Assembly (NCBI GenBank): GCA_963703345.1
Contig: OY969814.1
Location: 2,208,001-2,272,000 of the forward strand
DNA length: 64,000 nucleotides
Source: an uncultured Chloroflexia bacterium
GTDB taxonomy: Bacteria; Chloroflexota; Dehalococcoidia; DSTF01; JALHUB01
Direction of reading: 5' to 3'
Part shown: positions 31,819-49,276 of the stretch, piece by piece
Numbering within the stretch: position 1 is the stretch's first letter
How the letters are laid out: each line of letters starts with the position of its first letter
Program-made: the position numbers and the translations under genes
The notes under the pieces: generated by a model
Told to the model about the DNA's origin: nothing
Database searches by the model: none
Seen by the model: only the letters and a program-made list of their open reading frames with translations

Positions 31819-31841
31819 CTGCGGCAGCCACCCACATGGGC

Positions 31842-32378: not shown

Positions 32379-32455
32379 CCGTTCCCTCCTCTGAAGGACT
32401 ATAAGCTAGCGCCACGCCTAATGGGGATGGGGATAACCCTGATTTTTCGCTTCTG

Positions 32456-33139: not shown

Positions 33140-33170
33140 TGCGTGTTCCTCTTTGGTTGGAAGTACTTCT

Positions 33171-33285
33171 AAATGCTTATCGGACGGCCTCTTGTATAAC
33201 TAAAGTGGTATTCCCGAGGACATATGAAATGTTTATCGGACGGCCTCTTGTATAACTAAAGTGGTATTCCCGAGGACATATGAAA
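33171..33285. repeat. 56-bp tandem duplication upstream of tasA-like gene
   Basis: aaatg(c/t)ttatcggacggcctcttgtataactaaagtggtattcccgaggacatatg twice (33171, 33227), one mismatch. Confidence 0.93.
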
Positions 33286-33502
33286 GAGAAGGGAGATCGG
33301 GACGAGATCGCTCTGGGTGAGGCATACCCTGGTCCGCCAGGAATCCCGCCAATTGGCGAGCACTCTCCAAGTACGTCTCAATCTCTCGTGGAGATAGGTT
33401 CGCCGCTCGTGGGTGACGGGCGAAGCTTTCCACGTTAACAAGCACGTCGCCCCGTGCTATACTGTCGCTGGTTACAGGCTCGCGCACGGCGTCCCTCATC
33501 AT
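33233..33502 (-). pseudogene. Truncated tyrosine integrase N-terminal (SAM-like) domain
   Basis: SFARHPRAANLSPREIETYLESARQLAGFL resembles the integrase core-binding N-terminus; no catalytic domain. Confidence 0.65.
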
Positions 33503-33581
33503 TGCCAGTGCCGGTCTCGGAACCTGTGCCAGGTTATTCAGGCGCTGTTCCAGTTAGAGGCTGTAGCTAGGTTCGAAACGA

Positions 33582-33657
33582 GCGGGAATAGCTCAGTTGG
33601 TAGAGCATCTGCTTCCCAAGCAGAGGGTCGCGGGTTCGAGTCCCGTTTCCCGCTCCA
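33582..33657 (+). tRNA. tRNA-Gly(CCC)
   Basis: 76 nt; GCGGGAA/TTCCCGC acceptor stem, TCTGC-TTCCCAA-GCAGA anticodon arm, GTTCGAG T loop, encoded CCA. Confidence 0.98.
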
Positions 33658-33684
33658 ACGTTTTTCCAGGTTTCATTAGATATG

Positions 33685-33709
33685 AAGCCGGGCATTTCGC
33701 CCGGCTTTT
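33685..33709 (+). terminator. Rho-independent terminator after tRNA-Gly
   Basis: AAGCCGGGC-atttc-GCCCGGCTT followed by TT. Confidence 0.7.
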
Positions 33710-33943
33710 CTCGCCCCTCGGAATGGCCGGTTGTCGCGACCATCTGCTTTCTGGGCAGAGGGTTTGCGCTCCTCTGCCAGCTTCGGCGGTCTTGGTCTGC
33801 CACTCGCCGCTCTCCCAAATACGGATGGAGTATTGGCACGCCATAGCCCTTGCCCTCACGGCAGCTACCCGCCGGCCTCCGTCAAGACCCGCAGCGAGCC
33901 GTCGCATGGTCTCAGTGCCACCGTTTCCTTCCCCAGCGACACA

Positions 33944-33972
33944 TTGACAATCGCCATCCCGCCAATTAGTCT
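33944..33972 (+). promoter_or_regulatory. Sigma70-type promoter for druA (probably leaderless)
   Basis: TTGACA-17 bp-TAGTCT, ATG 7 nt downstream. Confidence 0.55.
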
Positions 33973-33979
33973 GTGACCG

Positions 33980-35173
33980 ATGCACAATCGCTCTGGTGAG
34001 CTCGCCGGGGCGAACTCGAACGCAGCAACTCAAGCTAGTCTCGTCGATCCGGCGAAGCTCAAACGACAAATTGTTGCCTCTCTCAGGGCGCAGGGATTTC
34101 GCATCTGTGGCGGCGAAATCCTGCCCCCGCGCGATCTCGACAAAGCCAAGATACGCGAGCTTCACACCACCGCGGTCTTTCATCGAATCGAGGTTTCCAG
34201 AAGAGGACTCGTAGGCCAAGAACCCCGCCTGCTTAGGCGGTTCGCTTCGGGGACCAACGTGGACCCGGCAAGCGTTAGGCCGCGCCTCGTCGAAGTGGAG
34301 CCGGATTCTGAGGACGAGCTGCTTTTCAGGTATGCTGCTTTGCACTGGAGTATCCCTGTCTCTTCCGGATATGGAAGGAGGATCCGATTTCTGGTTGTCA
34401 ACGAACAGAACCAGAGTCTCATCGGGCTCTTCGGACTGGGCGACCCAGTGTTCAGTCTCGCCGCCCGCGACGGATGGGTCGGGTGGGACAAAGAGTCGAG
34501 GCGCGAGAGGCTCCGCAACGTCATGGATGCTTTCGTGCTGGGTGCTGTCCCGCCCTACGCGAGTCTATTGTGCGGGAAGCTCGTTGCTATGCTCGTTTGC
34601 AGCTCAGAGGTGAGGCGGGCCTTCGAACGCAAATACGGTGGGGCAGAATCCTTCATAAGCCGCCGACCATCAGACGGTCGGCTCGCCCTTGTGACTACAA
34701 CCTCAGCGCTGGGCAGGTCTTCACTCTACAGCCGTATCAAGTACTGCGATCGCGTACTGTACGAGAGTGCCGGTTATACCAGGGGCTCCGGCGAGTTTCA
34801 CTTTGCCAACGGGCTCTATTCCGCTCTGACCAGCTATGCTCGTCTTCATTGTCAGCCAAGCGCGAAACATCCTGCATGGGGGATTGGATTCCGTAATCGG
34901 CGCGAGGTCGTGAGGAAAGCATTGAGGGAGCTCGGGTTGTCAGCCGAATGGGTCTACCACGGGGTTCGTCGGGAAGTGTTCGTCGTTCCACTGGCCCAAA
35001 ACACAAGAGAGTTTCTTCGGGGGGAGCACTCCGAGCTGCTATGGTCTGAACAATCAGCCGACGACCTGTTTAAGTGGTTCCGCGAACGGTGGCTGCTGCC
35101 CCGTGCCAGTCGCAACTGCTCGTACCGAGATTTCGACCCGCATTCATACGCAATATGGAACAACGCGACCTAG
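33980..35173 (+). CDS. druA: Druantia DruA-like protein (DUF4338)
   Basis: WSIPVSSGYGRRIRFLV, LGDPVF..AARD.WVGW, LGAVPPY..LLCGKLVA, TTTSALGRSSLY. Confidence 0.85.
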   Translation: MHNRSGELAGANSNAATQASLVDPAKLKRQIVASLRAQGFRICGGEILPPRDLDKAKIRELHTTAVFHRIEVSRRGLVGQEPRLLRRFASGTNVDPASVRPRLVEVEPDSEDELLFRYAALHWSIPVSSGYGRRIRFLVVNEQNQSLIGLFGLGDPVFSLAARDGWVGWDKESRRERLRNVMDAFVLGAVPPYASLLCGKLVAMLVCSSEVRRAFERKYGGAESFISRRPSDGRLALVTTTSALGRSSLYSRIKYCDRVLYESAGYTRGSGEFHFANGLYSALTSYARLHCQPSAKHPAWGIGFRNRREVVRKALRELGLSAEWVYHGVRREVFVVPLAQNTREFLRGEHSELLWSEQSADDLFKWFRERWLLPRASRNCSYRDFDPHSYAIWNNAT

Positions 35174-35231
35174 GGATTCGATCTCCAAAACAGGGAAGCG
35201 CGAGCATGGATGACCAGCTTTCGCGAGAGAG

Positions 35232-36383
35232 ATGAACGAATCTGAGACTCCGTTCGCTGACCTGCCCGAGGCCCTGCTTGACGAGATGCTCTCCCAAACA
35301 GAGCGGGTCGCCGAAGGCCTGTTGGGGACTTTCAGATCGGTCAACACGCAGCGGGCAGCTATGCGCGATGCCCTCAAGAGGCTCAACCTTGTCGACAATG
35401 AATCGTCTCTGGGTTATCCTCCTCTGCCGACGACCTGCGCGGTCAACGGCTCCTACGCTATAGAGAGGCTTCTTACCACCGATCTGGTGGCCTGTGCTGC
35501 CGTAGCAATCGAGGGTCTGACGCCGCCTTCAGAACAGCGGCATTGGGAGCAGCCTCGTCACCTCTCGGTCATTCAATCCGAAGTGCATCACGCCGAGACA
35601 GCTACCGTCCTTAGAGCTCTGATGCTGGGTCTTGAGTTGACGCTCGCGACAAGGGCTCCTCATGATGTTGTCATGCTCGACGCCACCCTCACCCTTCCGG
35701 TCATCTACTTCAACCAGGCCCTCCACGCTGCGGCTGGCGCGCCGGAGCTTGAGATATCGAGCGCTTTCCGCCAGCAGGCGGTCGATTTCCTGCGGTGCTA
35801 CGCCGCGATTCTTCAATCGGAACGTTCCGACCGGGACTTCGTTGGCCTGCCGAAGTACTCGACGAGGCGCGAGGTTGGCCGACAAGCCGGATGGTCGGAC
35901 CAACATGACGACAGGGGCCTACTTACACTCATTCTTGATCCTGGGGAGTTCACTAGGCCGCTTTCCCTTGAGCAGCCAGCGCAGCCCTGGCATCTAGGTA
36001 CGGGGACGCTCCCCCCCGATGTACGTGCAGATGCGGAACGCCTGGCTACGGAGATCGCGGGCCGCCTGGAGCAAGTTCGGATATTTTACTACAAGCCCCA
36101 CCGATGGTTGCCTGCCGTTAGGGTGGAAGTGCCTTCAAATGTTGCTGAAAACCAACACCGCCTGGCTAGGGTGGTCCAAGGAATAAAGCATCAGTGTGCG
36201 GCGGCCGGGATGATGGAGCCCTACCCCTTGTACATGGCGGACCGCATGGTAAAGGCCGTGGCGCGAGCGTTGCCGGCCTTCAGACAGGTGACGACGCAGC
36301 GGATTTCCGAGCAGTACGAAGGCGAGATCGCTGAAGTCTTCTTCGGCTTGCACGGCTATAGGTCAGAGTCAGGAGTTCAGTAG
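35232..36383 (+). CDS. NurA-family nuclease (first acidic motif reads VNGS)
   Basis: AVNGS (family xxDGS), VMLDATL, PK, PYPLYMADR; directly upstream of HerA-like ATPase. Confidence 0.8.
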   Translation: MNESETPFADLPEALLDEMLSQTERVAEGLLGTFRSVNTQRAAMRDALKRLNLVDNESSLGYPPLPTTCAVNGSYAIERLLTTDLVACAAVAIEGLTPPSEQRHWEQPRHLSVIQSEVHHAETATVLRALMLGLELTLATRAPHDVVMLDATLTLPVIYFNQALHAAAGAPELEISSAFRQQAVDFLRCYAAILQSERSDRDFVGLPKYSTRREVGRQAGWSDQHDDRGLLTLILDPGEFTRPLSLEQPAQPWHLGTGTLPPDVRADAERLATEIAGRLEQVRIFYYKPHRWLPAVRVEVPSNVAENQHRLARVVQGIKHQCAAAGMMEPYPLYMADRMVKAVARALPAFRQVTTQRISEQYEGEIAEVFFGLHGYRSESGVQ

Positions 36384-36385
36384 TG

Positions 36386-38191
36386 ATGGACACCGGTTCT
36401 ATGGGCCGAAGCATCGACAAACTCATCGATGACTCGGAGCGCCTTGGAGTCGTCGGCTCGCCTTCATCGACCGCCGAGCTTGCCATGGACGTCCTGGGTG
36501 CCGCTGTCAACAGGAAACTCGTCGGGGAGTTGGCTCTTTTCCGTTTCCTCCAGGACTCTGCCAGGCACTATGCACTCGGCCAGATTACGGAGGTAAAGCT
36601 GCGGAATATCTGGCACGAAGATCCAACGATGCGGAGCCTCATCAGGCAACGCGGGCGCGTCAACGCTGTGAGCGAGCGCCAAGACACGCACCTCGCTCAG
36701 ATGATTGTGAGCGCCGTGTTCAAAGACGGCGCCAGCTCCGCGACCTATGAGCCAAGCATAATGGGAACGGTACCCGCGACAGGTACGACGATTCATGTGG
36801 TAACAGACCCTATCCTGGAGGAGATTCTACGACCTTACCGCAGGCAGATCTTTTACCTTGGTCAGGTGTATGGTTCGAAGCCCAAACTGCCTCTATGGTT
36901 CAAGCACTTCGACCGAGGACCAGACGGCGCCGGAGAAGCCTATCATCTCGGCATTTTTGGCAAGACCGGTTCGGGCAAGTCGGTCCTGGCGAAGATGATT
37001 CTGCTCGCCTACGCCCGCTATCCTCAGATGGCTCTTCTCGTAATCGATCCGCAGGGCGAGTTTGCGCGCGATATCGGTGGTGGGCACACAACGGGTGAAT
37101 TCCCCTTGCCGTTAGGAGATCTCGTCAGCTCCCGAGGGAAGCCGGTCCGTGTTCTCACCGTAAAAAACCTTGTCCTCGATAGATGGGAGCTTTTCCGCCG
37201 AATTCTCTATGAGTCCCTTTTCTTTGAGCGCTTGACGATTCCGCGGAGCGAGAACCGAGAACTGGCGTGTGACATCCTTTCGGAGAAGTTGCAGAAAGCC
37301 GGGGTGAAGCTCGCTGAGCTTTGGAATCGAACTTCATTCGACCGCGCGTGGACTTTGCTTGGTGACCCCGCTGTGCAACGCAATTTCTATCGAACAGACG
37401 CGTCTCGCGCCCGCTTCGACGCCGCTCTGCACGAGGCAGATGCTGACGAGTTCTACAAGGATTACTGGCGCCCGGTGGCAGAGCTATTCCGCGCCGACAG
37501 ATCCGGAGCCACAACAGTTGAGAGTGCGCTTGGCTCCTTGTTAGATCCGCAGAAGGATCAGCGTCCGACTCTGGTAGTGGACCTGTCACGCGAACAGGCT
37601 TCCGGGATGTTCTGGAATGATACAATCCAGTCCCTAGTCATCAAGCGGCTTCTGGACGGTCTAGAGGTCACGGCAGAGCACTTCTTCAAGGGCGGAGAAA
37701 GCCTGAATGCGTTAGTAGTGATAGACGAAGCACACCGTCTCGCTCCACGAGAGTTGCCGACAGACGATGAGGCCGCGAAAGCGGTCCGAGGAGTTCTCAT
37801 TGACGCCGCACGAACAACGAGGAAGTATGGGTTAGGTTGGCTGTTCATCAGCCAAACCCTCTCGAGTTTGCACACCGAGATACTCCAGCAGCTCCGCATC
37901 ATGTTCTTCGGCTTCGGCCTCGGCCTCGGCCAGGAGTATCAGTCTCTCAGACAGTTGGTGGGCTCGTCCGGCCCCGCCCTTGACCTGTATCAGCTATTCA
38001 GAGATCCTCATTCAGCGTTTGACGCAAAGAGTCGCCAGTACTCTTTTATGACCATCGGCCCGGTGAGCCCATTGTCATTCTCCGGGAGCCCCCTTTTCTT
38101 CAACGCCTTCAACACGGTGGAGGCGTTCGTAGAAGCCAACGAGATGGAAACGAATCCAAGGCAGGACAGCGGGCAAGAACCTAGAATCTAG
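36386..38191 (+). CDS. HerA/FtsK-family ATPase (DUF87)
   Basis: N-terminal HAS-barrel-like region, GIFGKTGSGKS, VIDPQGE, VVIDEAH, RKYGLG...SQ. Confidence 0.9.
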   Translation: MDTGSMGRSIDKLIDDSERLGVVGSPSSTAELAMDVLGAAVNRKLVGELALFRFLQDSARHYALGQITEVKLRNIWHEDPTMRSLIRQRGRVNAVSERQDTHLAQMIVSAVFKDGASSATYEPSIMGTVPATGTTIHVVTDPILEEILRPYRRQIFYLGQVYGSKPKLPLWFKHFDRGPDGAGEAYHLGIFGKTGSGKSVLAKMILLAYARYPQMALLVIDPQGEFARDIGGGHTTGEFPLPLGDLVSSRGKPVRVLTVKNLVLDRWELFRRILYESLFFERLTIPRSENRELACDILSEKLQKAGVKLAELWNRTSFDRAWTLLGDPAVQRNFYRTDASRARFDAALHEADADEFYKDYWRPVAELFRADRSGATTVESALGSLLDPQKDQRPTLVVDLSREQASGMFWNDTIQSLVIKRLLDGLEVTAEHFFKGGESLNALVVIDEAHRLAPRELPTDDEAAKAVRGVLIDAARTTRKYGLGWLFISQTLSSLHTEILQQLRIMFFGFGLGLGQEYQSLRQLVGSSGPALDLYQLFRDPHSAFDAKSRQYSFMTIGPVSPLSFSGSPLFFNAFNTVEAFVEANEMETNPRQDSGQEPRI

Positions 38192-38849
38192 CAGTTTCTG
38201 ACCCGTGCTCACCGGGGCTTTCTTCCAATGACGCGAGGATCTTGTCGACCATGGGCATCAAGTCTCGCCGCAGTTCGTCCCTCGTTCCTTCGTTCTCGAT
38301 GACGGTCAGCGACAGGTCACCCCGAGCTCGTAGGGCGTCTAAATCGTCATCGCCATACCATTTCTCCATGTCAACTCGGGAGATGTATCTTGCCCGGTCA
38401 ACCTGCCCACGCGTGAGGTTGCGTTGCCATGCAATGTCCCACGATGATGAGAGGTATAGGACAAGCGATTGGTCAATGATCCGTTTCGGAAGACAATCGA
38501 ACAGGGGTGCGTAGACGTGGCGCGCAACCTCCGCTATCACCAGATCGGCCCGCTCGGTTTCCAGCTTGGCGTGCAGCCAGTTATCCAACTCCTGCCAGAT
38601 GGAGTCGTCAGTGATCTCGAATCCCCCGTCTTCAGTGGGGCGATGGCGCCTGAACGAGGGGTCTTTCTGGACCAAGACCCAGAGTACCGGGAAGTCGTGC
38701 ATGACTGCTATCTCCCCTTCGAAGCCCCGCAGACGCAGCTCATCGGTCAGGATCCTTGTCGCGAGAGACTTGCCAGTGCAGGGACGACCAACGACGAAGA
38801 CAAACCGTGCCAAAGCCCCTCTCCTTGAACTGGCACTGACGAGCGTCAC
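38181..38849 (-). CDS. P-loop nucleoside/nucleotide kinase-like protein
   Basis: FVVGRPCTGKS Walker A near the N-terminus, LYL....AWQRN..R lid-like motif, VIEN.G; about 220 aa. Confidence 0.72.
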   Translation of the reverse strand: MTLVSASSRRGALARFVFVVGRPCTGKSLATRILTDELRLRGFEGEIAVMHDFPVLWVLVQKDPSFRRHRPTEDGGFEITDDSIWQELDNWLHAKLETERADLVIAEVARHVYAPLFDCLPKRIIDQSLVLYLSSSWDIAWQRNLTRGQVDRARYISRVDMEKWYGDDDLDALRARGDLSLTVIENEGTRDELRRDLMPMVDKILASLEESPGEHGSETARF

Positions 38850-38867
38850 AACGCCACGTCAACTCGG

Positions 38868-39725
38868 TTACGACCGCCCCCGCCTTCCCCACACGGCTAT
38901 GGAGAGTGCTGCAAGCGACAAAACGAGCGAAAAAAAGGATACCGCTAGCGCGGTCATTGGCCAACCACCCAGTATATCGCCTTCCGGTTTGATAACTGGG
39001 GCTATTGCGACGACAGCTAGGGCCGCTATGACCGCGGCCAGCACCGCCACCACAATCGTGATGAAGGTGATCGACTGCGCTCTGAGTTCGTCACTTTGCC
39101 TTGTCACGCGCGCTCCGAGTTCGTCACTTTGCCTTGTCACCCTCTCGACGTTCTCGACCATCTCGCGGGGAAAACTCCGCAGCCGATGAAGATCAAAATC
39201 CCCCAGAGAATCTCGGCCCTGCTTCATCGGTATGCTGATTCCTTTCCTGAACGGGGTGGTCTTGACGAAATCCATCGCGAAAAGCTCTTTGCGATAATCG
39301 AGAACTACTTCGCGATCGGCCAGATTATATACTGGTGCGAACAGTTCTCCTGACCATCCCGGGTCAACCTGAAGAGCTCCCACCCATAGCAAGCCCTCAT
39401 AAACGCTCGACACTTTCAGAGCCCATCGTGCTATCAAGAATCTTGGCAGGTTCAACTTCTCGTAAGTACTGACAATCGCCATTTGATAAGGAGCGATTTT
39501 AAGGGGAGCGTTTTCGGCTATTACCACATCGACTCCACCCAGACGAGCGTGACTTCCCAGCGTTAGGTTGTATCTTGCTGCTCGCAGGTGTTCCTGGTGG
39601 AATGGATCGATGAGCGGCGGGACTACTTTGGTGGAGTAGTATTCGATCTCGTCAGATAGGAGCACCGCTCCGTGCCATCCCCCCCGGCTCTTTCGCTGGT
39701 CTTCTTCAAGGATGTCTTCCTGCAT
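38868..39725 (-). CDS. dCTP deaminase/dUTPase-fold protein fused to coiled coil and two TM helices
   Basis: LLSDEI, LIDPF..EHLRAARYNLTLG, E.LNLP, VDPGWSG..YN; C-terminal FITIVVAVLAAVIAALAVV and LAVSFFSLVLSLAAL. Confidence 0.82.
   Translation of the reverse strand: MQEDILEEDQRKSRGGWHGAVLLSDEIEYYSTKVVPPLIDPFHQEHLRAARYNLTLGSHARLGGVDVVIAENAPLKIAPYQMAIVSTYEKLNLPRFLIARWALKVSSVYEGLLWVGALQVDPGWSGELFAPVYNLADREVVLDYRKELFAMDFVKTTPFRKGISIPMKQGRDSLGDFDLHRLRSFPREMVENVERVTRQSDELGARVTRQSDELRAQSITFITIVVAVLAAVIAALAVVAIAPVIKPEGDILGGWPMTALAVSFFSLVLSLAALSIAVWGRRGRS
39084..39140. repeat. 33-bp-period tandem duplication (RVTRQSDEL x2)
   Basis: gagttcgtcactttgccttgtcac at 39084 and 39117. Confidence 0.9.
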
Positions 39726-40079
39726 GGATCCCTCCAGTAAGCGCGGTTCAGAGTAACGGACCCAACCCGAGGTTCATATTCGATGAGTCCGCGACAAAGC
39801 GCTTGACCCCGACGCGAAAACCAGTTGACGGCCTCCTCCCAAGGAGCCGTCCAGCCTCTTCCGGAGGCAAACGATGCCCGCTCAATCTTGGGCCGGTGCT
39901 GCGGTGCGATGCGGTTGCGATATCGACAGACCGTTGAAAGAGGGCTCCAGGCTACGTGCGCCGGGCGCCGCGATGGTAGGTGAGAACCCCTCTCGTTCTC
40001 TCAACACGGTGTGGGCAAGTCTATGCCGCCTGTCGACGATTTCCACTGCAGGGCCGACCGATTGCGAAGACAAAGCGTT

Positions 40080-41024
40080 TCAAACTGGGGCCGGAACGCT
40101 ATTCGGCGGACTCATCTCCTTTGCGGGCATTGACTTTATCGCTTCGCCACAACCGCCATCGCAGCCGTTGTCCGGTACGTGGTTTGCCTCAAAGCAGCTA
40201 GGGCACACCATTTGGCCATTGCGAGTGTAGACGCGGCGCATAAGATTCGCCAGGGTCAGCTCTTCGCCAATCAGCCTATCCAATAGTCCGTCCTCTACCA
40301 TTGCCCTGCCCAACTTATTGATTCCCTCTGCTCGAATGCCTACTTTCCGAAGGATCGAGCAGCTCCACGACACCACATCGGCCAACTCCTCGATCATGTG
40401 AGCGCGATGACGATCGATCTCTTTGCTACCTTCTGCGGGAGCATCGCAGAGTATGCGTATATCTTCCGCAACCTCGGCGACCTCCTCTAGGTAATGAAAC
40501 CCGATGTCGCTGTCTAGACGCAGCTGGTCATCCTTGTCGAAGATCTCCTTGAAGAGGCCCTCAAGGTCACAAAGGGTCTTGGGCACGTGCCCCTTGGATT
40601 TCTTTCTATTTCTGGTCAACTGGTCAGCGACGTGTTCTTTGTCAAGAGGGCCTCTTAGTGACGCGCATTGGCAGCCAGGGCTCAGGCAATGGGGACAGAT
40701 CAGCGGATATTTGTAGAACGCAATCGTCCCAAGGCCGTCAAGCGCTCCCAAATGCGGATCGGTAATAGGCTCGAATGAGGCTGGAACCTGCTCCTTCTGG
40801 CCGAGCTTCCTTACAAAGATAGTCAGCCAACACCAGGCTTGCGCTAAGCCTACTAGTTGGGCCGAAAGGACCTCCTCGCGAATCCCTTCTCCTACCGCTG
40901 CCGCATGCTCTGCGACCTTCAACCAGATTCGCTCCAGGGATCGCTTTCCGGCCAACTCCCCGTAGAGTGACCAAAGCCCATCTGCCCAGGCATCAAGGTT
41001 GTCGTCGTCAGGAGCAGTAACCAT
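40080..41024 (-). CDS. MazG-like NTP pyrophosphohydrolase with duplicated domain and Cys clusters
   Basis: LEEVAEV...EELADVVSW in second half; degenerate AEH..A / LAQAWCW in first half; KYPLICPHC...CQC and CPSC. Confidence 0.78.
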   Translation of the reverse strand: MVTAPDDDNLDAWADGLWSLYGELAGKRSLERIWLKVAEHAAAVGEGIREEVLSAQLVGLAQAWCWLTIFVRKLGQKEQVPASFEPITDPHLGALDGLGTIAFYKYPLICPHCLSPGCQCASLRGPLDKEHVADQLTRNRKKSKGHVPKTLCDLEGLFKEIFDKDDQLRLDSDIGFHYLEEVAEVAEDIRILCDAPAEGSKEIDRHRAHMIEELADVVSWSCSILRKVGIRAEGINKLGRAMVEDGLLDRLIGEELTLANLMRRVYTRNGQMVCPSCFEANHVPDNGCDGGCGEAIKSMPAKEMSPPNSVPAPV

Positions 41025-42099
41025 AGGAGAATACTCCTCTTCTCTTGCCCGCTACCTCAGGGGCGTGCGTCGTCCGTCGATCAACCAACTCTTCATTTGT
41101 GGGACCCGTTCCGATAAACACCACCGGGACCCCTAGTTCCCCCTCAATTTCTCGAGCAAATCGGCGCGCACTTTCGGTGAGGTTCGCAAAATCAGTCTGC
41201 CCCTTGTTCTCGAAATCAATGTAGTCCACCCCGTGAACGGCAATAGCCGTAGGTCGATTCACCGCCGCCGCCCGTTTCACAAGGGCGAGGTCGAAAGTCG
41301 CCACTCGCCTGGGGTTCTTGGTGACAGTAGTCAACTCCATTATTGGATAGGGATACCCGCTCAACTCCCTCAGTCGATCCCAGGAGATCTCGTCACCGAT
41401 CTCGCCGGAATTGCCGGCGACCCTTATTGGGAAAGTGCGGACCGCCATGATTACATCGTCGACGGCCAACGGACTCAATCCAACCTCGCCTAGAAATGAC
41501 GCTGCCGTAGTGTCGCGGCTCGTGCAATATGGGAACTGAGCCGTGTGGTAAAGCGAGAGGCCATAACCTTGAGTGCCTTCTACTAAGGTTTTCGCCCCGC
41601 GATCGACCGCACTGTTGACTTCGTCGGCGACGTCCGTGAGAAATAGACGCAGCTCGGGCACGTCTTTAGCGAGTCTGAAAGATTCGTCGCGAAGAGCCCT
41701 GCGAGCGACGGCTGAACCTGTCCCGGACAACGTCGAGCCGCATCTCTCCCTGAGAAGGGTGCGTGTCTCAGCAGCCCGGTCAGTCTCCTCAATGATGCCC
41801 GTGTTTCGATCGATGCCAATTCTGTCCGGGCGCACGCCGAACGTCGCTAACTCATCAAAGAACACGCCAACATCCAGCAAACCGCCAGCAGCAATCAATA
41901 GCCGGGTCCTGGAGTTTACAAGTCCGGCCGGGATGCTCCGCAGTTGAATTCTCTTGCCGCCCATGTCAACGGTGTGGCCGGAGTTGGGTCCGCCGCAGCG
42001 CACTACGTATTCGACATCATCAGTCATACTCAGGTGGGAGCAGATTTTGCCCTTGCCCTCTCCTCCGTATTGAGCGCCCACGATCACCGTCACGCCCAT
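41008..42099 (-). CDS. Adenylosuccinate synthetase homolog with PurZ/PurZ0-type signatures
   Basis: GAQYGGEGKGK, GGPNSGHT, EGTQG..L, FPYCTSRD, RTFPIRVAGNSG, ELTTVTKNPRRV, HGVDY, GTGP; 363-aa short form; GGAGG RBS. Confidence 0.85.
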   Translation of the reverse strand: MGVTVIVGAQYGGEGKGKICSHLSMTDDVEYVVRCGGPNSGHTVDMGGKRIQLRSIPAGLVNSRTRLLIAAGGLLDVGVFFDELATFGVRPDRIGIDRNTGIIEETDRAAETRTLLRERCGSTLSGTGSAVARRALRDESFRLAKDVPELRLFLTDVADEVNSAVDRGAKTLVEGTQGYGLSLYHTAQFPYCTSRDTTAASFLGEVGLSPLAVDDVIMAVRTFPIRVAGNSGEIGDEISWDRLRELSGYPYPIMELTTVTKNPRRVATFDLALVKRAAAVNRPTAIAVHGVDYIDFENKGQTDFANLTESARRFAREIEGELGVPVVFIGTGPTNEELVDRRTTHAPEVAGKRRGVFSYGYCS

Positions 42100-43673
42100 T
42101 GCAGACCTCCTGAGACACTCGTCTCTTTGGCTCGCGGCATTCGAACGCCTTCATGATGATTCGGCGCTGTCGGCACGATTAGATAGCCTTCATCGTCGTT
42201 GCCCAGCGCTTCGTAGTCACCCGCAAGATAGAAATAACCGACGATGGCCGAGGTTATTGCATCCAGTTCATCATGACTAAGCGACTGATCAGCAAGCGGC
42301 CCCGTTATCCCAAAGTCGAGGAGCGACATCCTAAGCTCCTCTCTCCCTGTACTCTTCCGCGGTATTCGAAGAATGTCTTGGGCGGCCCCGGGGAAGCTCT
42401 CGATGACTTCAAGACCCTGTTGCCGCAATCTGTTCGCCAGCGTGATGCCCCGATTCGTCAAAGCGATCATTGTCGGCAATTGACACCAGAACACGGAGAT
42501 CCCGCGCTGCTTGAGCTCCAGCTCCGAGTGCCGGTAGATCTTCCGAATGCCCCCGTCCGTGGGTGCAGGCAAATTGAGCGGAGAGTCAATAGATACTACG
42601 TCGGGTTTTGCCTGCAGCGTCAGTTCCACGAGGTCATCGTCCGTTCGCACCACTTTGGTCGTTGCGTGTCTGCCTTTGAGCAGCGCCCAGCCCGTCGGCC
42701 GCTTTGGTGATGCGGCGAGATCAATGCCGACTATCCCGCGCTCTGTTCCAGTCTTTCGGAGAAGCGACAGTATGCGGTGCTTCCGGGGAGGGGTGACAGC
42801 TCGTCCGGAAGCCAACGGGGCGAGGGCCATACGGAGTGCCTCTTCGACTTGGGTGGCCGTCATGTCCATGCCGACAATTGGCCCGGGTGGCTCACTTGGG
42901 CTGCTGCTCAGCAAACGGCGACTTGCCTCCGAGTATGCGAAGTTTAGCAGTTGAACAAGGTTGACGGTATCCCACATGTTGTAGCGCACTAGTTGTTCGA
43001 AAGCGGACTGCTGGCCACGCTTATACGCGAACCAAAGGGCGGCGGCCTGCCTTCCTGTAATGGCCTGAGATTCCGCATCTCTGGTGAGACCGAGCGCCTG
43101 CTCGATGCGCTTGAGGCCTCCCCGTAGCTCGAGGCGGGCGAGAAGAAAACGTAGATCCACATGAACCAAGGGTAGATCAAGCTTCGGGTAGGCGGACCGC
43201 AAGAAGGGGATGTCGAACTGGCTCCCATTGAATGTCACCAGGATCCCGAAACGACGCACTGCGTCAGGGAAGCGCTCCAAGTTGACGCCCTGGACGAAGC
43301 ATTCGTAGCCTTCCTTGCTGTACAGACCTACCATGGTCAGTTCGTCGTAATAGCGACTGAGCCCAGTCGTCTCGACGTCAAGGAAAGCAATGCGGTCAGA
43401 GAACTCGCGAACTAGGCGCCATCGTTCGCCAGATGGGAACAGCGGAGCAAAGTAGTCCAAACGACGGTGATCGAGAGCCTGCTTTGACTCGCGGAGCCCC
43501 GACAGCAGTCGGCGCGAAGGCCCGACCAGGCGCTCGGTCGAAATCGGGGCGGGATTCAGCGGACGGTCAACCCAAGCGAAGTAGTCCGACCAGGAATGGA
43601 TTCCCTGGGACCACAGTCGCTGCTCGGTTCGCCTGCCGACTCCGTGTAGGTGGCTGAAGGTATTGGTGAGCAT
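42090..43673 (-). CDS. YprB-like (RNase_H_2, DEDD) exonuclease fused to DUF429 domain
   Basis: HhH-like GVGRRTE, FLDVETTG, FNGSQFD, HVDL, YNMWD; then VGIDLA, SIDSPL, IESFPG, HDELDAI. Confidence 0.82.
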   Translation of the reverse strand: MLTNTFSHLHGVGRRTEQRLWSQGIHSWSDYFAWVDRPLNPAPISTERLVGPSRRLLSGLRESKQALDHRRLDYFAPLFPSGERWRLVREFSDRIAFLDVETTGLSRYYDELTMVGLYSKEGYECFVQGVNLERFPDAVRRFGILVTFNGSQFDIPFLRSAYPKLDLPLVHVDLRFLLARLELRGGLKRIEQALGLTRDAESQAITGRQAAALWFAYKRGQQSAFEQLVRYNMWDTVNLVQLLNFAYSEASRRLLSSSPSEPPGPIVGMDMTATQVEEALRMALAPLASGRAVTPPRKHRILSLLRKTGTERGIVGIDLAASPKRPTGWALLKGRHATTKVVRTDDDLVELTLQAKPDVVSIDSPLNLPAPTDGGIRKIYRHSELELKQRGISVFWCQLPTMIALTNRGITLANRLRQQGLEVIESFPGAAQDILRIPRKSTGREELRMSLLDFGITGPLADQSLSHDELDAITSAIVGYFYLAGDYEALGNDDEGYLIVPTAPNHHEGVRMPRAKETSVSGGLQWA

Positions 43674-43891
43674 CCTGCGACGGTTATTCTACGCGAGGCC
43701 CGACTCGCGTGCTAGCCTTCGCCGACGACATACGCGTGCGGGGGCCCTCTTACACAACCACGTCGTGTGCTGCCGCCGGGCATTCTGTACTCTACCATCA
43801 TGCAAGGAGTCATCATTACCATTCTGTCCGCCAGGAATTTGCCAGTCACGTCCCGTTACCCTACCATTGGCGGTTGAAAGGTTGACGTTGG

Positions 43892-45370
43892 ATGACAGAT
43901 TCCGACCCTTCAACGCATTGGCCGAGCCACATCTCGCCTCTTGAGTTCCGGTACCTGCCTTCTGGGGACCCGAGAAGCGAACGAGTCAGGCAGTATCTCA
44001 CTGAAGAAGCCTATGTCCGCTATCTCACCAGGGTCGAGTCCGAGCTGGCAAGGGCACTTGGTAGGCTGGGGGTATGCCCTCAGGAAGTTGCGGATTCTAT
44101 TTCGAGGGCAGCTGATGCTGTCAGCGCCGTGGAAGTGTACCACGAAGAGCGCACTACAGGTCATCAGATCCCGGCCCTGGTAAACTGCATACGTCGAAGG
44201 GTTCCCCCCGATGCGGCGAATTTCGTTCACCTTTTTGCCACGTCGTCTGACATCATGGACACCGCGAACGCCTTACGCTACAAAGAATTCGCCAGGGACG
44301 TTCTGCTCGTTGACCTCATTCGGCTGGAGCGAACGCTTATCGAACTAGCCGAGATGCACGCTAGCACAAGACAGGTGGGCAGAACTCATGGGATGTTTGC
44401 TGAACCCTTGACATTTGGCTTCGCGCTAGCGTTCTACGTTGATCGGCTCGGCAATCGAATCCGCAGCATTAATGACGCTCGGAACAACCTACGAGGCAAA
44501 CTCTCCGGCGCAGTGGGGGCCTACAATTCGATGTCGCTTGCGTTCCCGGACGACCCTACGGTTCTGGAATCCGACGTTCTGGGCCACCTGGGCTTGCAGC
44601 CCTCAGACACTCGCATTTCAACGCAGATTGTTCAACCTGAATACTTGACAGACTTCGTTTATTCGGTCGTGACGTGTCATTCCGTGATCGCGAATCTCGC
44701 CGATGACATGAGACACTTACACAGAAGCGAAATCGCGGAGGTGCGAGAACGTAGTGGCGAGGGCCGGGTGGGCTCTTCAACAATGCCTCGCAAGATCAAC
44801 CCCCAGTCCTTCGAGACCGTAAAGAGCATGTGGAAGGTGACGATGCCGCGCCTCACTACCGTGTTGCTCGATCAGATATCCGAGCATCAGCGAGACTTGA
44901 CGAACTCGGCCTCGATGCGCTTCATGCCCGAGATTCTGGCGGCTGTCGATTTCTCAGTTTGTCTTCTTGGCGACGCAATGCAGCGTCTGGAAGTAGGGGT
45001 TGACAGCATGAAGTCGAACCTCGCCTCTGCCTCGCGGGAGACCGTAGCAGAGCCGCTCTACATCTTGCTCGCGCTCAACGGCTGCCCGAACGGTTTCGCG
45101 AAAGCGCGCGACCTGGTAGGCCAATCTATCGCTACTGGTGTGCCGGTGTTAGACCTTTGCGAGGTTGATGAAGATGTGCGTCCGATCCTCGCCCGACTGC
45201 GCCAGGAACATGTTGCTATCCTTCAGGACCCGAGCCTCTATGTGGGAGACGCGGTGAGGAGAGGCAACGAAACGTGCGCCCTCTGGCGCGCCCAAGTCAA
45301 CCGGCTAGAGGCCGCATTGCAGCGAGAAAGAGCGGAGCGTTCGGCTTCGTCTCTTGGGCCGAGGCTGTGA
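43892..45370 (+). CDS. purB: Adenylosuccinate lyase family protein (island copy)
   Basis: ISPLEFRY, H..ATSSDI.DTA, GRTHG..AEP.TFG, GAVG, STQ, GSSTMPRKINP, EHQRDLTNS. Confidence 0.88.
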   Translation: MTDSDPSTHWPSHISPLEFRYLPSGDPRSERVRQYLTEEAYVRYLTRVESELARALGRLGVCPQEVADSISRAADAVSAVEVYHEERTTGHQIPALVNCIRRRVPPDAANFVHLFATSSDIMDTANALRYKEFARDVLLVDLIRLERTLIELAEMHASTRQVGRTHGMFAEPLTFGFALAFYVDRLGNRIRSINDARNNLRGKLSGAVGAYNSMSLAFPDDPTVLESDVLGHLGLQPSDTRISTQIVQPEYLTDFVYSVVTCHSVIANLADDMRHLHRSEIAEVRERSGEGRVGSSTMPRKINPQSFETVKSMWKVTMPRLTTVLLDQISEHQRDLTNSASMRFMPEILAAVDFSVCLLGDAMQRLEVGVDSMKSNLASASRETVAEPLYILLALNGCPNGFAKARDLVGQSIATGVPVLDLCEVDEDVRPILARLRQEHVAILQDPSLYVGDAVRRGNETCALWRAQVNRLEAALQRERAERSASSLGPRL

Positions 45371-45451
45371 CGCGTGACCCTATGCTTCGGAGACAAATAC
45401 TCTACTGGACTCGTCGGCCGTGTGCTGGCAGCGGAGCATTGCGCGCTGTTT

Positions 45452-46069
45452 TTAGGATGACGTTTTGCGGCCGCTCGTGGTGCCCGTTCTCTCGTCGGCA
45501 AGAATCTTCGCCCACTGCTCTTTGGACTCTTTCTCGCCGTAAGGCCACTCCGCGAAGGTGAGAACCAGGACCACTATCGTGTAAACCATCCCGAGAGCGA
45601 TGACGCTTACAAAACCCTCCCTGGGATTGGGCTTAAGGTCGAAGGCTACCTGTACCAGAAATGGCAGCGCACCCGCTGCGATTCCTAGAAGGAGGAAGAC
45701 CATAGCTTGCGCTCCTGAATATGCACGTATGGCTACGCGTCGCCGGAGCTTGCGGTATATCTCCCATCGCTGTTCCCATTGTGACTGGCCAGTCGCAGAG
45801 AGATAAGCAGTGATCACTCGTAATTGGACCTTCAGTGCCTGGTGCAGGCAAAACAGCGCTAGAAGAACAAGCAAGAGCAGAAGAGAGATACCGTAGGTAA
45901 TCCATCCAACATCGCTGGCTGTCGCATTAGCCTTCTCCACTATCCAGCCGGCGCCGACGCCGAAAATCGTAACTGCCAGGATGGTTATGAGAAGCCTCTG
46001 ATTCACTATTTGATTGACCTCGCCGTGAAGCTTCGTGGCATCGAGTTTCTCACCTTCTTCTGTCTGCAC
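45452..46069 (-). CDS. Four-TM membrane protein (effector-like)
   Basis: Four hydrophobic helices; GTG at 46069 with GGAGG RBS overlapping end of upstream gene. Confidence 0.7.
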   Translation of the reverse strand: MQTEEGEKLDATKLHGEVNQIVNQRLLITILAVTIFGVGAGWIVEKANATASDVGWITYGISLLLLLVLLALFCLHQALKVQLRVITAYLSATGQSQWEQRWEIYRKLRRRVAIRAYSGAQAMVFLLLGIAAGALPFLVQVAFDLKPNPREGFVSVIALGMVYTIVVLVLTFAEWPYGEKESKEQWAKILADERTGTTSGRKTSS

Positions 46070-47042
46070 GACGCGGCCTCCTGTGTGTCGAGTCCTGGCC
46101 GGAATACTTCCCCATTTCTCTCTCAAGGGCAGCAAGTGATGTCGCATTACCGAAACAGCGGGACATCGCAAGCAAGAGGCGATATCTCGACGTCGGGTGC
46201 CAGCGGTAACCGCGTCGTGTCTGCACAATTAGACGTGCCACGTTGGTCGGCAGAAGAGGGACGAATCGCAGACGTTTCAACTCTGCTCTACTACGGTCCC
46301 TTCGTTTTCTCCACGACGTCATAAGATCGCCAGACGAGAAGGCCGTCTTTAGATAGGCTACGATTGCAGGATTGGCTATCGCCGATTCGATGACCACGGC
46401 GAGGAGCGCACAATCGCTTGGTTCGGCACCTGCAGGAAAGAGTTCCTCGTTTACGCCTCGCGCTGCCGCTGCGTGAAATGCTGCATCCCCATAGGCCAAA
46501 TCCTCAGGCGAAAGTTGCTCTTCAAAGGAGGCACACCAATGGAGTGGGTGGTATTCTACCCACTCGCTCCTCTGGGCAAGCACTAGCATTTCATCCGCGG
46601 TCTCCACGATGCCGTGAATGCTGACAATGTTTGGAGTTGAGGCGGTTTTGGATTCGACGAGGGTCCGGATAAGCTCAAGCCGCGAGCCTATCCCCCCGTT
46701 CGACCTGAGATACTCGTGAATCGGTTGCACCTCGGACCATTCGGTGGCTTGGACACTGAGACGAATCTTCTCCCCCTGAGACGTGTAGGTTCGAAGCGAC
46801 AGTTTGCGTTCGCTAATCTCGTCACGGTGATGTTCAAGCCATGAATCTCTGAGTGCACGCCAACTATCCGAGATACCTCCTACTCTGCGTTGAATTCTGA
46901 CACGCGTGTCTCGAATTTCCCACCCTGGCGATAGGCTTGGCGCTCTAGTCCCTTCGATTGCTCCATCCACGATCAGCTGGGGCATAGGAATTTGGGTCGC
47001 CCTGCCGCCGCTCGGGACTGCGTAGAATTCCTGAAAATCCAT
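46050..47042 (-). CDS. Nudix-fold-like protein
   Basis: VETADEMLVLAQRS..V...P..W..SFEE...AAARGVNEEL divergent Nudix box. Confidence 0.65.
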   Translation of the reverse strand: MDFQEFYAVPSGGRATQIPMPQLIVDGAIEGTRAPSLSPGWEIRDTRVRIQRRVGGISDSWRALRDSWLEHHRDEISERKLSLRTYTSQGEKIRLSVQATEWSEVQPIHEYLRSNGGIGSRLELIRTLVESKTASTPNIVSIHGIVETADEMLVLAQRSEWVEYHPLHWCASFEEQLSPEDLAYGDAAFHAAAARGVNEELFPAGAEPSDCALLAVVIESAIANPAIVAYLKTAFSSGDLMTSWRKRRDRSRAELKRLRFVPLLPTNVARLIVQTRRGYRWHPTSRYRLLLAMSRCFGNATSLAALEREMGKYSGQDSTHRRPRRADRRR

Positions 47043-47048
47043 CGCAGT

Positions 47049-48419
47049 TCAGGAGAGATTCGTCGGTCGAATGCTATGAGCATCCATGCGTCGTGCCGCC
47101 TTTGTGATTGTGTTGATTACGCCTGCCCGATATTGCCCTCTAGTCCATTGGGCCAAGGCCTGATATCCGCCGACTAGTGCGGGAACGCTCTGTCCTACTT
47201 CATTATGCGAAATCATCGGAGCGACGGCCGCAGCCAACAGAGCCCAGGCCGGGATTGACCGAGGAGTAGAATTCGTCAATTTCTTCTCCCAAGCTCGCTC
47301 CAGCGCTGTCGCGTGCTCGCGAATTGCGTCCTCTAGTTGCTCTTCATGCCTGTCATCCTCGTGCCATCGTGCCAACGCTTCTTGATAGCGCTGGCGCGTA
47401 AGATCCGTTTCCTGGAACACTAGCGTCACTTTAGGCCACTCCAACTCCAGCGGATCCCATTTGAACAATCCCGCGACTCCCTTGAGCCAAAGACGATTCG
47501 AGGAAGACTCCCTCTGATTCTCATCGAATGGGTACAAGGCGTCGCAGGGCCTATCCAGGAAGAGGCTTACCGGCACTGAATCTGGCAGAGCCCCGACCGA
47601 AGCACCATCGGGAGCCAGCGTACGTTGCACGGCCGCATTCCACGCGTGAATAACCGTGTTCCTTATAGCTCTATATGTTGGGGCATCAAGTCCATCCCTG
47701 TGCTCCTCAAGACAGGTCATGACCGCCGACCGAATCCCACGATCTGGCACATTGTCGTCGATGAACTTTTTCGTGCTATGGACCACCGTCCAGCTACTCA
47801 CCCCTAGTTCTTCCGGCCCGCGAGCGTACAACTCTTCCAAAATGTCGTACATTGTAACCGGGGCCCGAGTCTTTGCTCGCTTCGTCGCCGAGGTTTCGTC
47901 CCGGGAGAAGTACTCAATGGCCCTTAGCGGTCCCGACAACCTCGGGTCCAGGTCGCCAATACCTCTTGGATACGGCTCAACAAGCATCCTCTCAAGGTCA
48001 ATACTCCCCGACGACAGCAAGAGGTCGGCAAATCGTGTTATGGGTTGAGCCGTTCCAAGCGAGGATGAGATCCAGCCAGGCTTGAGCGTCCGCCTCAGTC
48101 CCCAGGTCGCGATCCCAAAGTTCCCCAAGGCTCGACCGGTCTTGTCGGGATTTGCCACGAGTTCGAAAGGTGAGAATTGCGAATCCCGTGCCAAGCGCGC
48201 CAGCTCCTCGGGTAGGGCGTCATCCACGAAAAGTGCTTGCACAACGGGACTGTCGAACAGATGCACATCATTGAGCACGAGCGTGTTCCCGAAGAGCATA
48301 TGGAGCCTAACGATTCTCTGGGCATTCTCCTTAAGTTGCTGAACGTTCGGTTGCGGAAGTCCATGCCAAGATTGGGGACGGAAATACTCCCCATCGAACC
48401 ACTGAGCATAGCGACGCAT
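47049..48419 (-). CDS. Hypothetical protein (456 aa)
   Basis: Long ORF with purine-rich RBS, 6 nt from the next gene; no family recognised. Confidence 0.65.
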   Translation of the reverse strand: MRRYAQWFDGEYFRPQSWHGLPQPNVQQLKENAQRIVRLHMLFGNTLVLNDVHLFDSPVVQALFVDDALPEELARLARDSQFSPFELVANPDKTGRALGNFGIATWGLRRTLKPGWISSSLGTAQPITRFADLLLSSGSIDLERMLVEPYPRGIGDLDPRLSGPLRAIEYFSRDETSATKRAKTRAPVTMYDILEELYARGPEELGVSSWTVVHSTKKFIDDNVPDRGIRSAVMTCLEEHRDGLDAPTYRAIRNTVIHAWNAAVQRTLAPDGASVGALPDSVPVSLFLDRPCDALYPFDENQRESSSNRLWLKGVAGLFKWDPLELEWPKVTLVFQETDLTRQRYQEALARWHEDDRHEEQLEDAIREHATALERAWEKKLTNSTPRSIPAWALLAAAVAPMISHNEVGQSVPALVGGYQALAQWTRGQYRAGVINTITKAARRMDAHSIRPTNLS

Positions 48420-48541
48420 CGACCTTCTCCCAACGGATCATCGAGCCGCGTTCGGGTGGATTTTCGTTGTCCACCTGGACAAGCCCTCAATGACACTACC
48501 TGAGACGGCCCGAGCGGCCGGCCCAGACGCCTGGCAGTAGC

Positions 48542-49276
48542 TCAACCCCGCACTCCAGAAAGAGATGCGATGATTTCCTCTTGTCCCCAATTAGGATCGA
48601 TAGTCGGGACAATTCTGCCACTCTCGCCTTTTACGTACGGGCCCAAAGTCTTCCTGTGCTCCTCTGGGCAGAAAACCACCGCCACGTTGTCGAGAAGGAA
48701 ACCGAAGTCCCCGCGGTGTCGCCACTCGCGCTCCCACCAAAACTCCTTCTTCGAGTTGCGCCACGTACCCATGCCCTCGACGAACGGAGCGATACCAGCG
48801 ATAGGCTGGTCTGAGAATCGCTCACCTTCTGCGGCTTGTCTGACCAATTCCCAGACGTTCTCCGTTAGCCATTCGTGACCGCCGGTCATATCGACGTACC
48901 AAACAGGATTCACGCCCAGCTCGCGCGCCTTTCGCTTGGTGAATGCCAGTCCGAAGGGTTCGAGCTGATTGCGTCAACCCTTGATCGGACACACGAAGCT
49001 CCATGCTTGCTCCAGAGGTGCCTCAGTGAAACACACTACCCGCTGGGACTTCAACGCCGTTTGGTGGTCTTTCGGACGTAGCTTCCCTTGGCGGAGAACC
49101 TTCTCTAGCTGAATGACGGCCGCGCCCATGGGAGTACGTGCGAGCAGCGTCTGATTAGCAAGAATGCTCTGTAGGTTCTCTAGCGCCGCCTTGCCGTTCC
49201 CTTGCCGTGTCCAGTGAATAACGAAGGTGGACAGATCGGTGCGCCGGCGCAACAATTCCTCGATCTCCCATTCCAT
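48542..49276 (-). pseudogene. AbiGi-like protein interrupted by one in-frame TGA (48974-48976)
   Basis: DLS.FVIHWT, VCFTEAPL, PFGLAF.K, NPVWY, WWEREWR all in one frame across the stop. Confidence 0.78.

Follow-up and report, generated by a model that had tools for sequence, protein, structure and literature searches.

Does a cell make Z (2-aminoadenine) nucleotides with genes of its own and, if it does, what would it use them for? This question is raised by a gene cassette (38181-45370) of an uncultured Chloroflexia bacterium, which lies in a stretch of 64,000 nucleotides (contig OY969814.1, positions 2,208,001 to 2,272,000), hereafter the window. An earlier note had described six open reading frames (ORFs) in this cassette, all of which were found: on the minus strand a YprB-DUF429 fusion as the first operon gene (42090-43673), a synthetase of the PurZ/PurZ0 clade (41008-42099), a tandem protein resembling MazG and all-alpha NTP pyrophosphatases (40080-41024), a dUTPase/dCTP-deaminase-fold protein with two transmembrane (TM) segments, or Dcd-2TM (38868-39725), and a P-loop protein resembling nucleoside monophosphate (NMP) kinases (38181-38849), with a second purB diverging from them on the plus strand (43892-45370). 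With a probability of about one half, we read the cassette from its sequence as a nucleotide-signalling anti-phage system in which a Z nucleotide, most likely the deoxytriphosphate dZTP, would be read by the membrane-anchored Dcd-fold protein.

The synthetase (Pfam Adenylsucc_synt, 4e-46) scored 212.7 bits with the PurZ profile NF038379 (cut-off 300) and 346.5 bits with the archaeal-type profile PRK04293 (cut-off 368), and its closest solved structures by sequence were the Pyrococcus-type short PurA 2d7u (E 2e-74), PurZ0 (6e-41) and PurZ (1e-30). Asp13, which was kept in 17 of 17 PurA rows, is replaced by Gly in the island synthetase (G13), and all of its 120 best homologs carry either Gly (88) or Ser (32) at this position. 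In a quick LG+G4 tree of 77 hand-picked rows, rooted on long PurA and supported by Shimodaira-Hasegawa-like approximate likelihood ratio tests (SH-aLRT), the enzyme fell inside a 59-row Ser/Gly clade together with PurZ and PurZ0 (SH-aLRT 99) and apart from 11 archaeal PurA rows (100), so that it does not show the grouping with canonical PurA that the earlier note had named as contrary to its proposal. Within the Ser/Gly clade it belongs to a mainly cellular subclade of 37 rows (support 97), in which seven sequences from viral contigs also fall; the tree does not order PurZ, PurZ0 and the cellular groups relative to one another. Archaeal short PurA differs from the island clade in retaining Asp13, Thr and Gly where the latter has Gly or Ser, Ile and Thr. 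Passages of PMC12884076 place four archaeal Ser/Gly sequences basal to PurZ and PurZ0, and give neither gene context nor function for them.

The features of the PurZ dGMP pocket (S14, T262, I234, W252 and a loop insertion in phiVC8) are present in the island enzyme as G13, T257, I225, W240 and a two-residue insertion after V227 (G229-N230). I225, W240 and the insertion were shared by 29 of 29 other rows of the cellular clade and by none of the 17 PurA rows, and Thr or Ser occupied position 257 in the same 29 rows. In a preprint, S14, T262 and W252 are named as distinguishing PurZ (bioRxiv 10.1101/2025.10.22.683976), whereas I234 was added as a pocket position from our own alignment; a passage of PMC8342488 links the loop insertion and a displaced R303 to the choice of deoxyribose. 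The R303 position is occupied by Asn in the island copy, and it is still Arg in 16 of 29 members of the clade. At the donor site, G290 and D292 are as in PurA (D292 also as in PurZ0) and not of the PurZ F295/N297 type, and Y293 matches Y298. Because D292 matches PurA and PurZ0 and not PurZ, GTP is the likely donor of the island synthetase. PurZ0 itself is presumed by us to prefer GTP. This assumption agrees with bioRxiv 10.1101/2025.10.22.683976, while PMC12884076 words it the opposite way. Hence the description of the enzyme as PurZ-like stands as far as the clade is concerned, but by these residues it would be PurZ0-like or basal and of the GTP type, and not PurZ proper.

The earlier note had also considered that the cassette might hold the only purA and purB of the genome. 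A separate canonical purA (567 bits, C1:102272-103528) and a separate purB (519 bits) are encoded elsewhere, and 43 of 50 cassette genomes hold another purA above the cut-off; a housekeeping identity of the cassette genes was thus ruled out. Among the matches to the synthetase, one on a plasmid (with folE, queC, queE, purB and IMPDH nearby) was of the Asp13 type and outside the clade, and deazapurine-antibiotic synthesis was therefore rejected as a model. A Rhizobium plasmid cluster (L201:4401-15722) combines folE, queC/D/E, nitrile hydratase and IMPDH genes with an Asp13-type short purA and purB, and we take it to be a toyocamycin-like deazapurine nucleoside pathway.

Conservation of the gene neighbourhood was surveyed in the best 80 of 494 confirmed synthetase loci from species-representative genomes, some of them cut by contig ends, using profiles built from the loci and a distance of 4.5 kb. 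These loci represent 12 bacterial and 3 archaeal named phyla, with 40 in Acidobacteriota and 18 in Chloroflexota. A Dcd-fold gene was found in 68 of the 80, DUF429 in 55, YprB in 49, an NMP-type kinase in 57 (AAA_18-like in 50, dNK-like in 12) and a helix-turn-helix (HTH) gene in 31, whereas purB occurred once and the MazG family never. The linkage proposed in the earlier note is therefore kept for the synthetase with the Dcd-fold, kinase and DUF429 genes, but not for MazG and purB, and the conserved core consists of the synthetase, a Dcd-TM protein, an exchangeable kinase and an exchangeable nuclease or unknown partner. Kinases of at least three unrelated types serve in the kinase position, and a sister clade has its kinase and synthetase joined in one fused protein. 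Effectors are exchanged as well: an AAA-ATPase protein replaces the Dcd-fold gene in 4 of the 80 loci, and the sister clade has DUF7002 in this position. The AAA-ATPase proteins (L038:9756-11921, L059, L063:10944-13358 and L066:10998-13190) have 720-800 aa with a helical domain, follow the synthetase directly and occur in one supported subclade. A likeness of DUF7002 to DarT received no support in profile searches against the PDB.

In the sister clade (L341:3321-8530, L342, L343, L344, L345, L199, L203, L204, L103 and L107) the order is IrrE/M78 peptidase, kinase-synthetase fusion and DUF7002, with a 260-aa protein and a second purB as optional additions. The loci often adjoin restriction genes, and one of them (L204) lies between RADAR-like and PUA-calcineurin genes. 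Regulators of the type seen in inducible immunity accompany both groups, namely the HTH gene, divergently oriented, in the 31 loci mentioned above and the IrrE/M78 peptidase in seven sister-clade loci. The cassette is patchily distributed, being absent from all 8 further genomes of the genus and present in 1 of 60 relatives, 2 of 93 genomes of the order and 8 of 401 in a class sample (sister clade counted), and recombinases flank other copies.

The most constant partner of the synthetase, the Dcd-TM protein (DCD, 3e-7 in the island copy), was modelled with AlphaFold2 (AF2; mean predicted local distance difference test, 87.6) as a beta domain (residues 20-155) and a 60-residue helix leading into TM1, followed by TM2 (TM segments at residues 224-242 and 260-278). 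The top Foldseek match of this model was the Thermococcus dUTPase 8y1w (E 1.4e-12, root-mean-square deviation 1.4), followed by dCTP deaminases; a trimer would be expected from this fold. S111, R115 and E138 of E. coli Dcd aligned to V105, Y109 and P131, so that the residues of the dCTP deaminase are absent; E138 is named in PDB titles, and S111 and R115 we take to be deaminase residues. Among 67 aligned rows, V105 was found in 57, Y109 in 64 and P131 in 67, and the family has new conserved residues of its own (R100, Q119, D152 and S184). One to three TM segments were predicted in 61 of 66 homologs. The cellular family lacks the motif-II Ser, and the island gene also lacks motif V. By contrast, in 27 of 80 viral loci the synthetase has a dUTPase-fold neighbour, and all of these neighbours end in a motif-V tail without TM extension (most have 138-166 aa), an ending that phage DutZ shares. 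Viral contigs yielded three Dcd-TM-like matches, none adjoining a synthetase. Dcd-2TM is predicted to be a nucleotide sensor-effector. A separate viral contig (L335:4825-8714) encodes an HD protein, a DNA methylase and a kinase-Dcd fusion, with no synthetase.

The first operon gene fuses YprB, a DEDD exonuclease-like domain of the RNase H fold (Pfam RNase_H_2, 3.5e-29), to DUF429 (2e-6), a second nuclease-like domain of this fold. The acidic residues D99, E101, D154 and D235 and also Y231 of YprB were conserved in most of 50 homologs, and D318, D363, E425, D468 and D471 of DUF429 in most of 55; YprB-DUF429 is predicted to supply deoxynucleoside monophosphate (dNMP). The kinase was assigned by an Atlas match to AAA_18 (0.97) and by hhalign to neighbouring dNK kinases (83%), and its family differs from the kinases at related loci. 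At two loci (L038:5779-8751 and L085:5891-8908) PolX-like and PHP domains fused to DUF429 stand, with a kinase, in place of YprB. The 260-aa family (L020:11974-12768 and 14 further loci, that is 15 of the 80), which has the motifs YVGDxGDFGKY and DPDNG and no match in Pfam, PHROG or PDB, never occurs together with DUF429 or YprB-DUF429; a likeness to RlmJ was not supported by PDB profile searches.

Two genes of the island cassette lie outside the conserved core. The MazG-like protein matched the MazG profile only at 0.0045, and HMMER placed it in a 264-member family with 24-40% identity among the matches listed; Atlas also backs the MazG fold. A word search for relatives found only the protein itself, and none was found in 400 genomes of the phylum or in viral contigs. 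Its ExxE/ExxD acidic motif (E180, E181, E184, E213 and D216) is invariant only in the second half of the protein, and it also has Cys clusters. The best matches of its AF2 model were dimeric dUTPase, MazG and DCTPP1 (Z 8.9, within the noise range for helical proteins), and Foldseek returned no match at E≤0.001. The protein is predicted to perform the step from dNTP to dNMP. Four of 79 metagenomic loci of the family (L225, L227, L232 and L237) hold a synthetase or Dcd-TM gene, one of them (L232) in the complete order synthetase, MazG, Dcd-TM; as these four are about 84% identical in DNA they represent one further lineage, whose MazG is about 30% identical to that of the window. Most other loci with context carry nucleotide-modifying genes (radical SAM, dCMP deaminase, Nudix, ThyX, NDT). 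In some of these (L239, L255, L257 and about 20 further metagenomic loci) a Nudix gene diverges from a conserved operon of a methylase-like gene, radical SAM, the island-type MazG family and dCMP deaminase; other copies stand with ThyX, NDT or thymidylate synthase, in what looks like a separate, undescribed nucleotide-modification cassette.

The island PurB (242.7 bits with the purB profile, cut-off 326) is 33% identical to the host enzyme and belongs to a distinct subfamily with relatives of 49-55% identity elsewhere. In the order, the two genomes (of 93) with this subfamily are exactly those that have the synthetase. An accidental neighbourhood was first suggested by its absence from 400 class genomes (three candidates scored in each) and from 50 main-clade cassette genomes. 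This was overturned by purB genes linked to such synthetases in other genomes: in G124 a purB of the island subfamily (53% identical) is divergent from an operon of the sister clade with a synthetase of only 40% identity, and in G661 and G630 purB genes of other types stand beside the cassette, each additional to another copy. Extra purB genes are thus found beside such synthetases in four genomes, that of the window included. The single purB among the 80 loci (L058), which sits in a purE-purB housekeeping run, was rejected as support. MazG and PurB are optional boosters that have been acquired on more than one occasion, a pattern that speaks for a route by way of the lyase. In 16 of 80 viral PurZ0-like loci (L106, L108, L112 and 13 more) a divergently oriented purB lies no more than 4.5 kb from the synthetase.

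In order to describe the genomic context, flanking ORFs of at least 230 aa (first 500 residues) were compared with PADLOC (E≤1e-30) in 32 hand-picked loci and in 20 control windows of 10 kb taken at fixed positions from cassette-bearing genomes; the synthetase, which had been listed as one of the ORFs, was left out. Matches were obtained for 23 of 182 flank ORFs in 13 of 32 loci, comprising type I and IIG restriction-modification, DRT4, Dsr1, Ppl, AbiU and HmaA as well as generic RmuC and kinases, and for 5 of 120 control ORFs in 3 of 20 windows. The enrichment of defence genes in the flanks is no more than suggestive.

The mechanism that we propose would start from dGMP, which is normally scarce; infection would raise its level, as YprB-DUF429 or phage nucleases degrade DNA and MazG acts on dGTP. 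The synthetase, by its residue signature, would join dGMP and aspartate with GTP; PurB, encoded locally here and supplied by the host in most relatives, would release dZMP; and the cassette kinase together with the host nucleoside diphosphate kinase would give dZDP and dZTP. The triphosphate would then be a ligand of a Dcd-fold trimer, whose TM helices would damage the membrane and thereby kill or arrest the infected cell. The earlier note had proposed that an aberrant nucleotide serves either as a signal or as a replication poison or mark; the former version fits better, since the partner found most consistently is a nucleotide-binding domain that is catalytically degenerate and anchored in the membrane. 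Since the island copy holds candidates for every step from dGTP to dZDP in 7.2 kb, MazG and the dedicated PurB included, it is the best construct for laboratory testing.

Several observations weigh against this signalling model. The use of dGMP by an enzyme with Gly at position 13 is a prediction from sequence. D121 of the dUTPase motif is retained in the cellular Dcd family, so residual hydrolysis is possible, and a passage of PMC12884076 reports that phage DutZ enzymes, which have this fold too and stand beside PurZ0, hydrolyse dATP and dGTP. The MazG family was absent from all 80 cellular loci, neither synthetase nor Dcd-TM was detected in 75 of its own 79 loci, the sole purB among the 80 is a housekeeping gene, and none of 50 main-clade cassette genomes holds the island PurB subfamily. 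Half of the surveyed loci (40/80) are acidobacterial, and many acidobacterial copies lie near dnaA, dnaN, gyrB or mnmE (L029, L035, L042, L043, L060, L069, L075 and L077). The flank enrichment is modest (one-sided Fisher p 0.048; without generic hits 10 of 32 against 2 of 20, p 0.07) for loci that are hand-picked and related. Finally, dGMP as substrate, dZMP and dZTP as products, ligand binding, membrane disruption and a phage trigger are all steps that we infer.

The retained D121 would be explained if Dcd-TM were a tethered, DutZ-like hydrolase that trims dATP and dGTP, while a flood of dZTP entered the DNA of the invader and blocked it or marked it for YprB-DUF429. The activity of same-fold DutZ in PurZ0 phages (PMC12884076) points the same way, a passage of PMC8342488 describes the toxicity of a Z-cluster in E. 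coli and the incorporation of Z into DNA, and YfbR-like HD proteins occur near the synthetase in three alphaproteobacterial plasmid loci. We nevertheless hold such a poison or mark to be unlikely, if the likeliest of the alternatives: the cellular Dcd family has lost the motif-II Ser and acquired TM helices, which the 27 viral neighbours with their motif-V tails have not, the nuclease is absent from 25 of 80 loci, and the genome has no YfbR/DatZ match. The near absence of purB, which is not found nearby in 79 of 80 loci, would in turn suit a different signal that PurB switches off: the succinylated intermediate (dSMP in phosphorylated form), a ribo-Z nucleotide or some other purine substituted at N6. 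A dedicated kinase would be needed if the host GMP kinase cannot use the succinylated product, the R303 equivalent is still Arg in the 16 clade members noted above, and in a section of a preprint N6-succinylated AMP is taken to be the product of such an operon (bioRxiv 10.64898/2026.01.15.699771). We consider this somewhat more doubtful again, as host PurB converts the intermediate in phage infections according to part of bioRxiv 10.1101/2025.10.22.683976, as purB is placed with the operon and once co-oriented with it, and as the island copy combines Asn at the R303 position with the deoxy-selecting insertion.

It may also be asked whether the cassette acts against phages at all. A selfish or addiction module, or a DNA-damage or nucleotide-salvage cassette carried on integrative elements, would agree with the integrase, the ParB-methyltransferase and the terminase-like ORF of the island, with the recombinases beside other copies and with the modest defence enrichment; this appears quite improbable to us, since salvage would leave unexplained both a dead sensor fused to variable TM helices and the exchange of effectors, and since sister-clade copies adjoin restriction, RADAR-like and PUA-calcineurin genes. 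Least probable by far is a remnant of a Z-genome prophage or satellite whose genes serve the replication of a Z-containing element. The weak terminase-like ORF and the seven viral-contig sequences in the cellular subclade speak for such an origin; no DatZ, and no polymerase or capsid family among the scanned island ORFs, was found, none of the three Dcd-TM-like viral matches stands beside a synthetase, and element and host share one canonical chromosome.

Compared with the phage Z-cluster, the putative signalling cassette has a synthetase of the same Ser/Gly clade with the dGMP-pocket residues, an adjacent gene of the MazG superfamily, a dUTPase-fold neighbour and PurB and kinase steps. It differs in being chromosomal, in its separate cellular subclade, in the lack of DatZ or DpoZ, in the degenerate and membrane-anchored state of its dUTPase-fold partner and in encoding nuclease, kinase, PurB and regulators locally. 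The absence of DatZ claimed in the earlier note was borne out, with no PF12917 (YfbR) match in the genome (96% complete). The cassette MazG, with its MazG fold and acidic motif, may act as MazZ does; it is of a different family found mostly in other contexts, and in place of a lytic genome with DpoZ/PrimPol and virion genes only the weak terminase-like ORF was seen among the scanned island ORFs.

Closer in its predicted logic is Kongming, in which, according to part of PMC12967843, a dNTP with a modified base is recognised by a house-cleaning enzyme without catalytic activity: in both, the base of a dNMP would be modified, the product phosphorylated and then read by a dead house-cleaning fold coupled to an effector. 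The six cassette proteins match none of the Kongming proteins (KomA deaminase, non-catalytic HAM1 KomB and SIR2 KomC, with dITP) in Pfam and NCBIfam; the cassette would aminate via aspartate and not deaminate, has its own kinase instead of the phage DNK, and, where Kongming depletes NAD+, would act through a membrane effector that forms one protein with the sensor. Section 5 of the preprint on PUA-Cal-HAD and its 'modified adenine synthesis' neighbourhoods mentions an adenylosuccinate synthetase operon beside PUA-calcineurin, read there as making N6-succinyl-AMP (bioRxiv 10.64898/2026.01.15.699771); dNMP from DNA breakdown is likewise its danger cue, and the operon matches the sister-clade locus L204. 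The cassette itself lacks PUA, calcineurin and HAD, and that section describes neither the PurZ signature nor a Dcd-TM or YprB-DUF429 protein; the sister clade may appear in Table S1 and Figure S1 of the preprint. With PADLOC 2.0, DUF429 resembled PDC-S44 (2.9e-10) and YprB had a weak likeness to DEDDh, the remaining five genes had no match and no system model was matched. Full-text literature searches, with subscription journals and bioRxiv supplements outside their reach, gave no account of the cassette. By sequence it lies outside PurA, PurZ proper, the phage Z-cluster, Kongming and the PADLOC 2.0 systems, with its enzyme inside the PurZ/PurZ0 clade, and what is new in the island copy is a candidate route from dGTP to dZDP that MazG and the dedicated PurB complete in one locus.

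Within the cassette, the YprB-DUF429 and synthetase ORFs overlap by 10 bp and the synthetase and MazG ORFs by 17 bp; 354 bp precede Dcd-2TM, where no small minus-strand gene was evident, and 18 bp precede the kinase. The 218 bp between YprB-DUF429 and purB (43674-43891) presumably hold the promoters of the operon and of purB; promoter and terminator scans gave chance-level results, with one sigma70-like match in this region, not above chance. The island begins at a tRNA-Gly(CCC) gene (33582-33657, plus strand), the 3' end of which recurs as a 46-bp copy (93% identical) 35.7 kb downstream, outside the window. The GC content is 57.2% in the cassette and equally in 33658-53300, compared with 65.1% in window positions 1-28000 and 64.4% in the whole genome. 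Partial copies of the tRNA-Gly 3' end occur at several further genome positions, and a 38-bp copy of its 5' end at 29080 brackets, with the tRNA gene (29080-33657), a gene set of signal-peptidase and TasA-like appearance. Among sequencing runs, no RNA run was listed as containing the island, and one DNA run covers it; this run may be the source sample and was not counted as support.

The island also encodes DruA, NurA, HerA, an integrase, a ParB-methyltransferase, UvrD/PD-(D/E)XK genes and a NACHT-HEAT protein. Of the flanking genes named in the earlier note, DruA and HerA were confirmed and NurA weakly so, whereas the 'Nudix' gene had no support in Pfam scans and AbiGi was weak: the latter ORF (48542-49276) matched at E 0.0044 on its C-terminal half in one scan and not in a second, and it is broken by an in-frame TGA at 48974-48976. 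The 4TM protein does have four hydrophobic segments. Because DruA-NurA-HerA, 'Nudix'/4TM and AbiGi had no blastp match in the 80 related cellular loci, they are regarded as island neighbours and not, as had been suggested, as parts of the system. The DruA, NurA and HerA operon (33980-38191) converges on the kinase gene and joins a Druantia subunit to NurA-HerA in an unusual pairing; at 49687-53200 a 248-aa ORF of unknown family and a protein of 931 aa that resembles Dsr1 outside its SIR2 part (E 1.5e-32) possibly form a variant two-gene defence module. A tyrosine integrase, a ParB-N6/N4 methyltransferase and the terminase-like ORF (TerL_ATPase 3.8e-4, 56442-58418) at 53866-58418 may be a degenerate prophage or satellite backbone; the claim that virion genes are lacking is weakened by this last ORF, but it holds for polymerase and capsid families among the scanned island ORFs.

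Synthesis of 2-aminoadenine has so far been described as a phage trait for evading restriction. If the reading given here is true, cells would use Z chemistry as well, and the cassette would provide the second base-modified nucleotide in immune signalling after dITP; it also bears on the origin of PurZ. Tentatively, and going well beyond the island copy, bacteria and archaea might run a Z pathway of their own in which exchangeable sensor-effectors (Dcd-TM, AAA-ATPase, DUF7002) recognise dZTP as a second messenger of immunity, the cellular clade might be the reservoir from which phage PurZ0 and PurZ came, and the sensor could also detect the dZTP of Z-genome phages.

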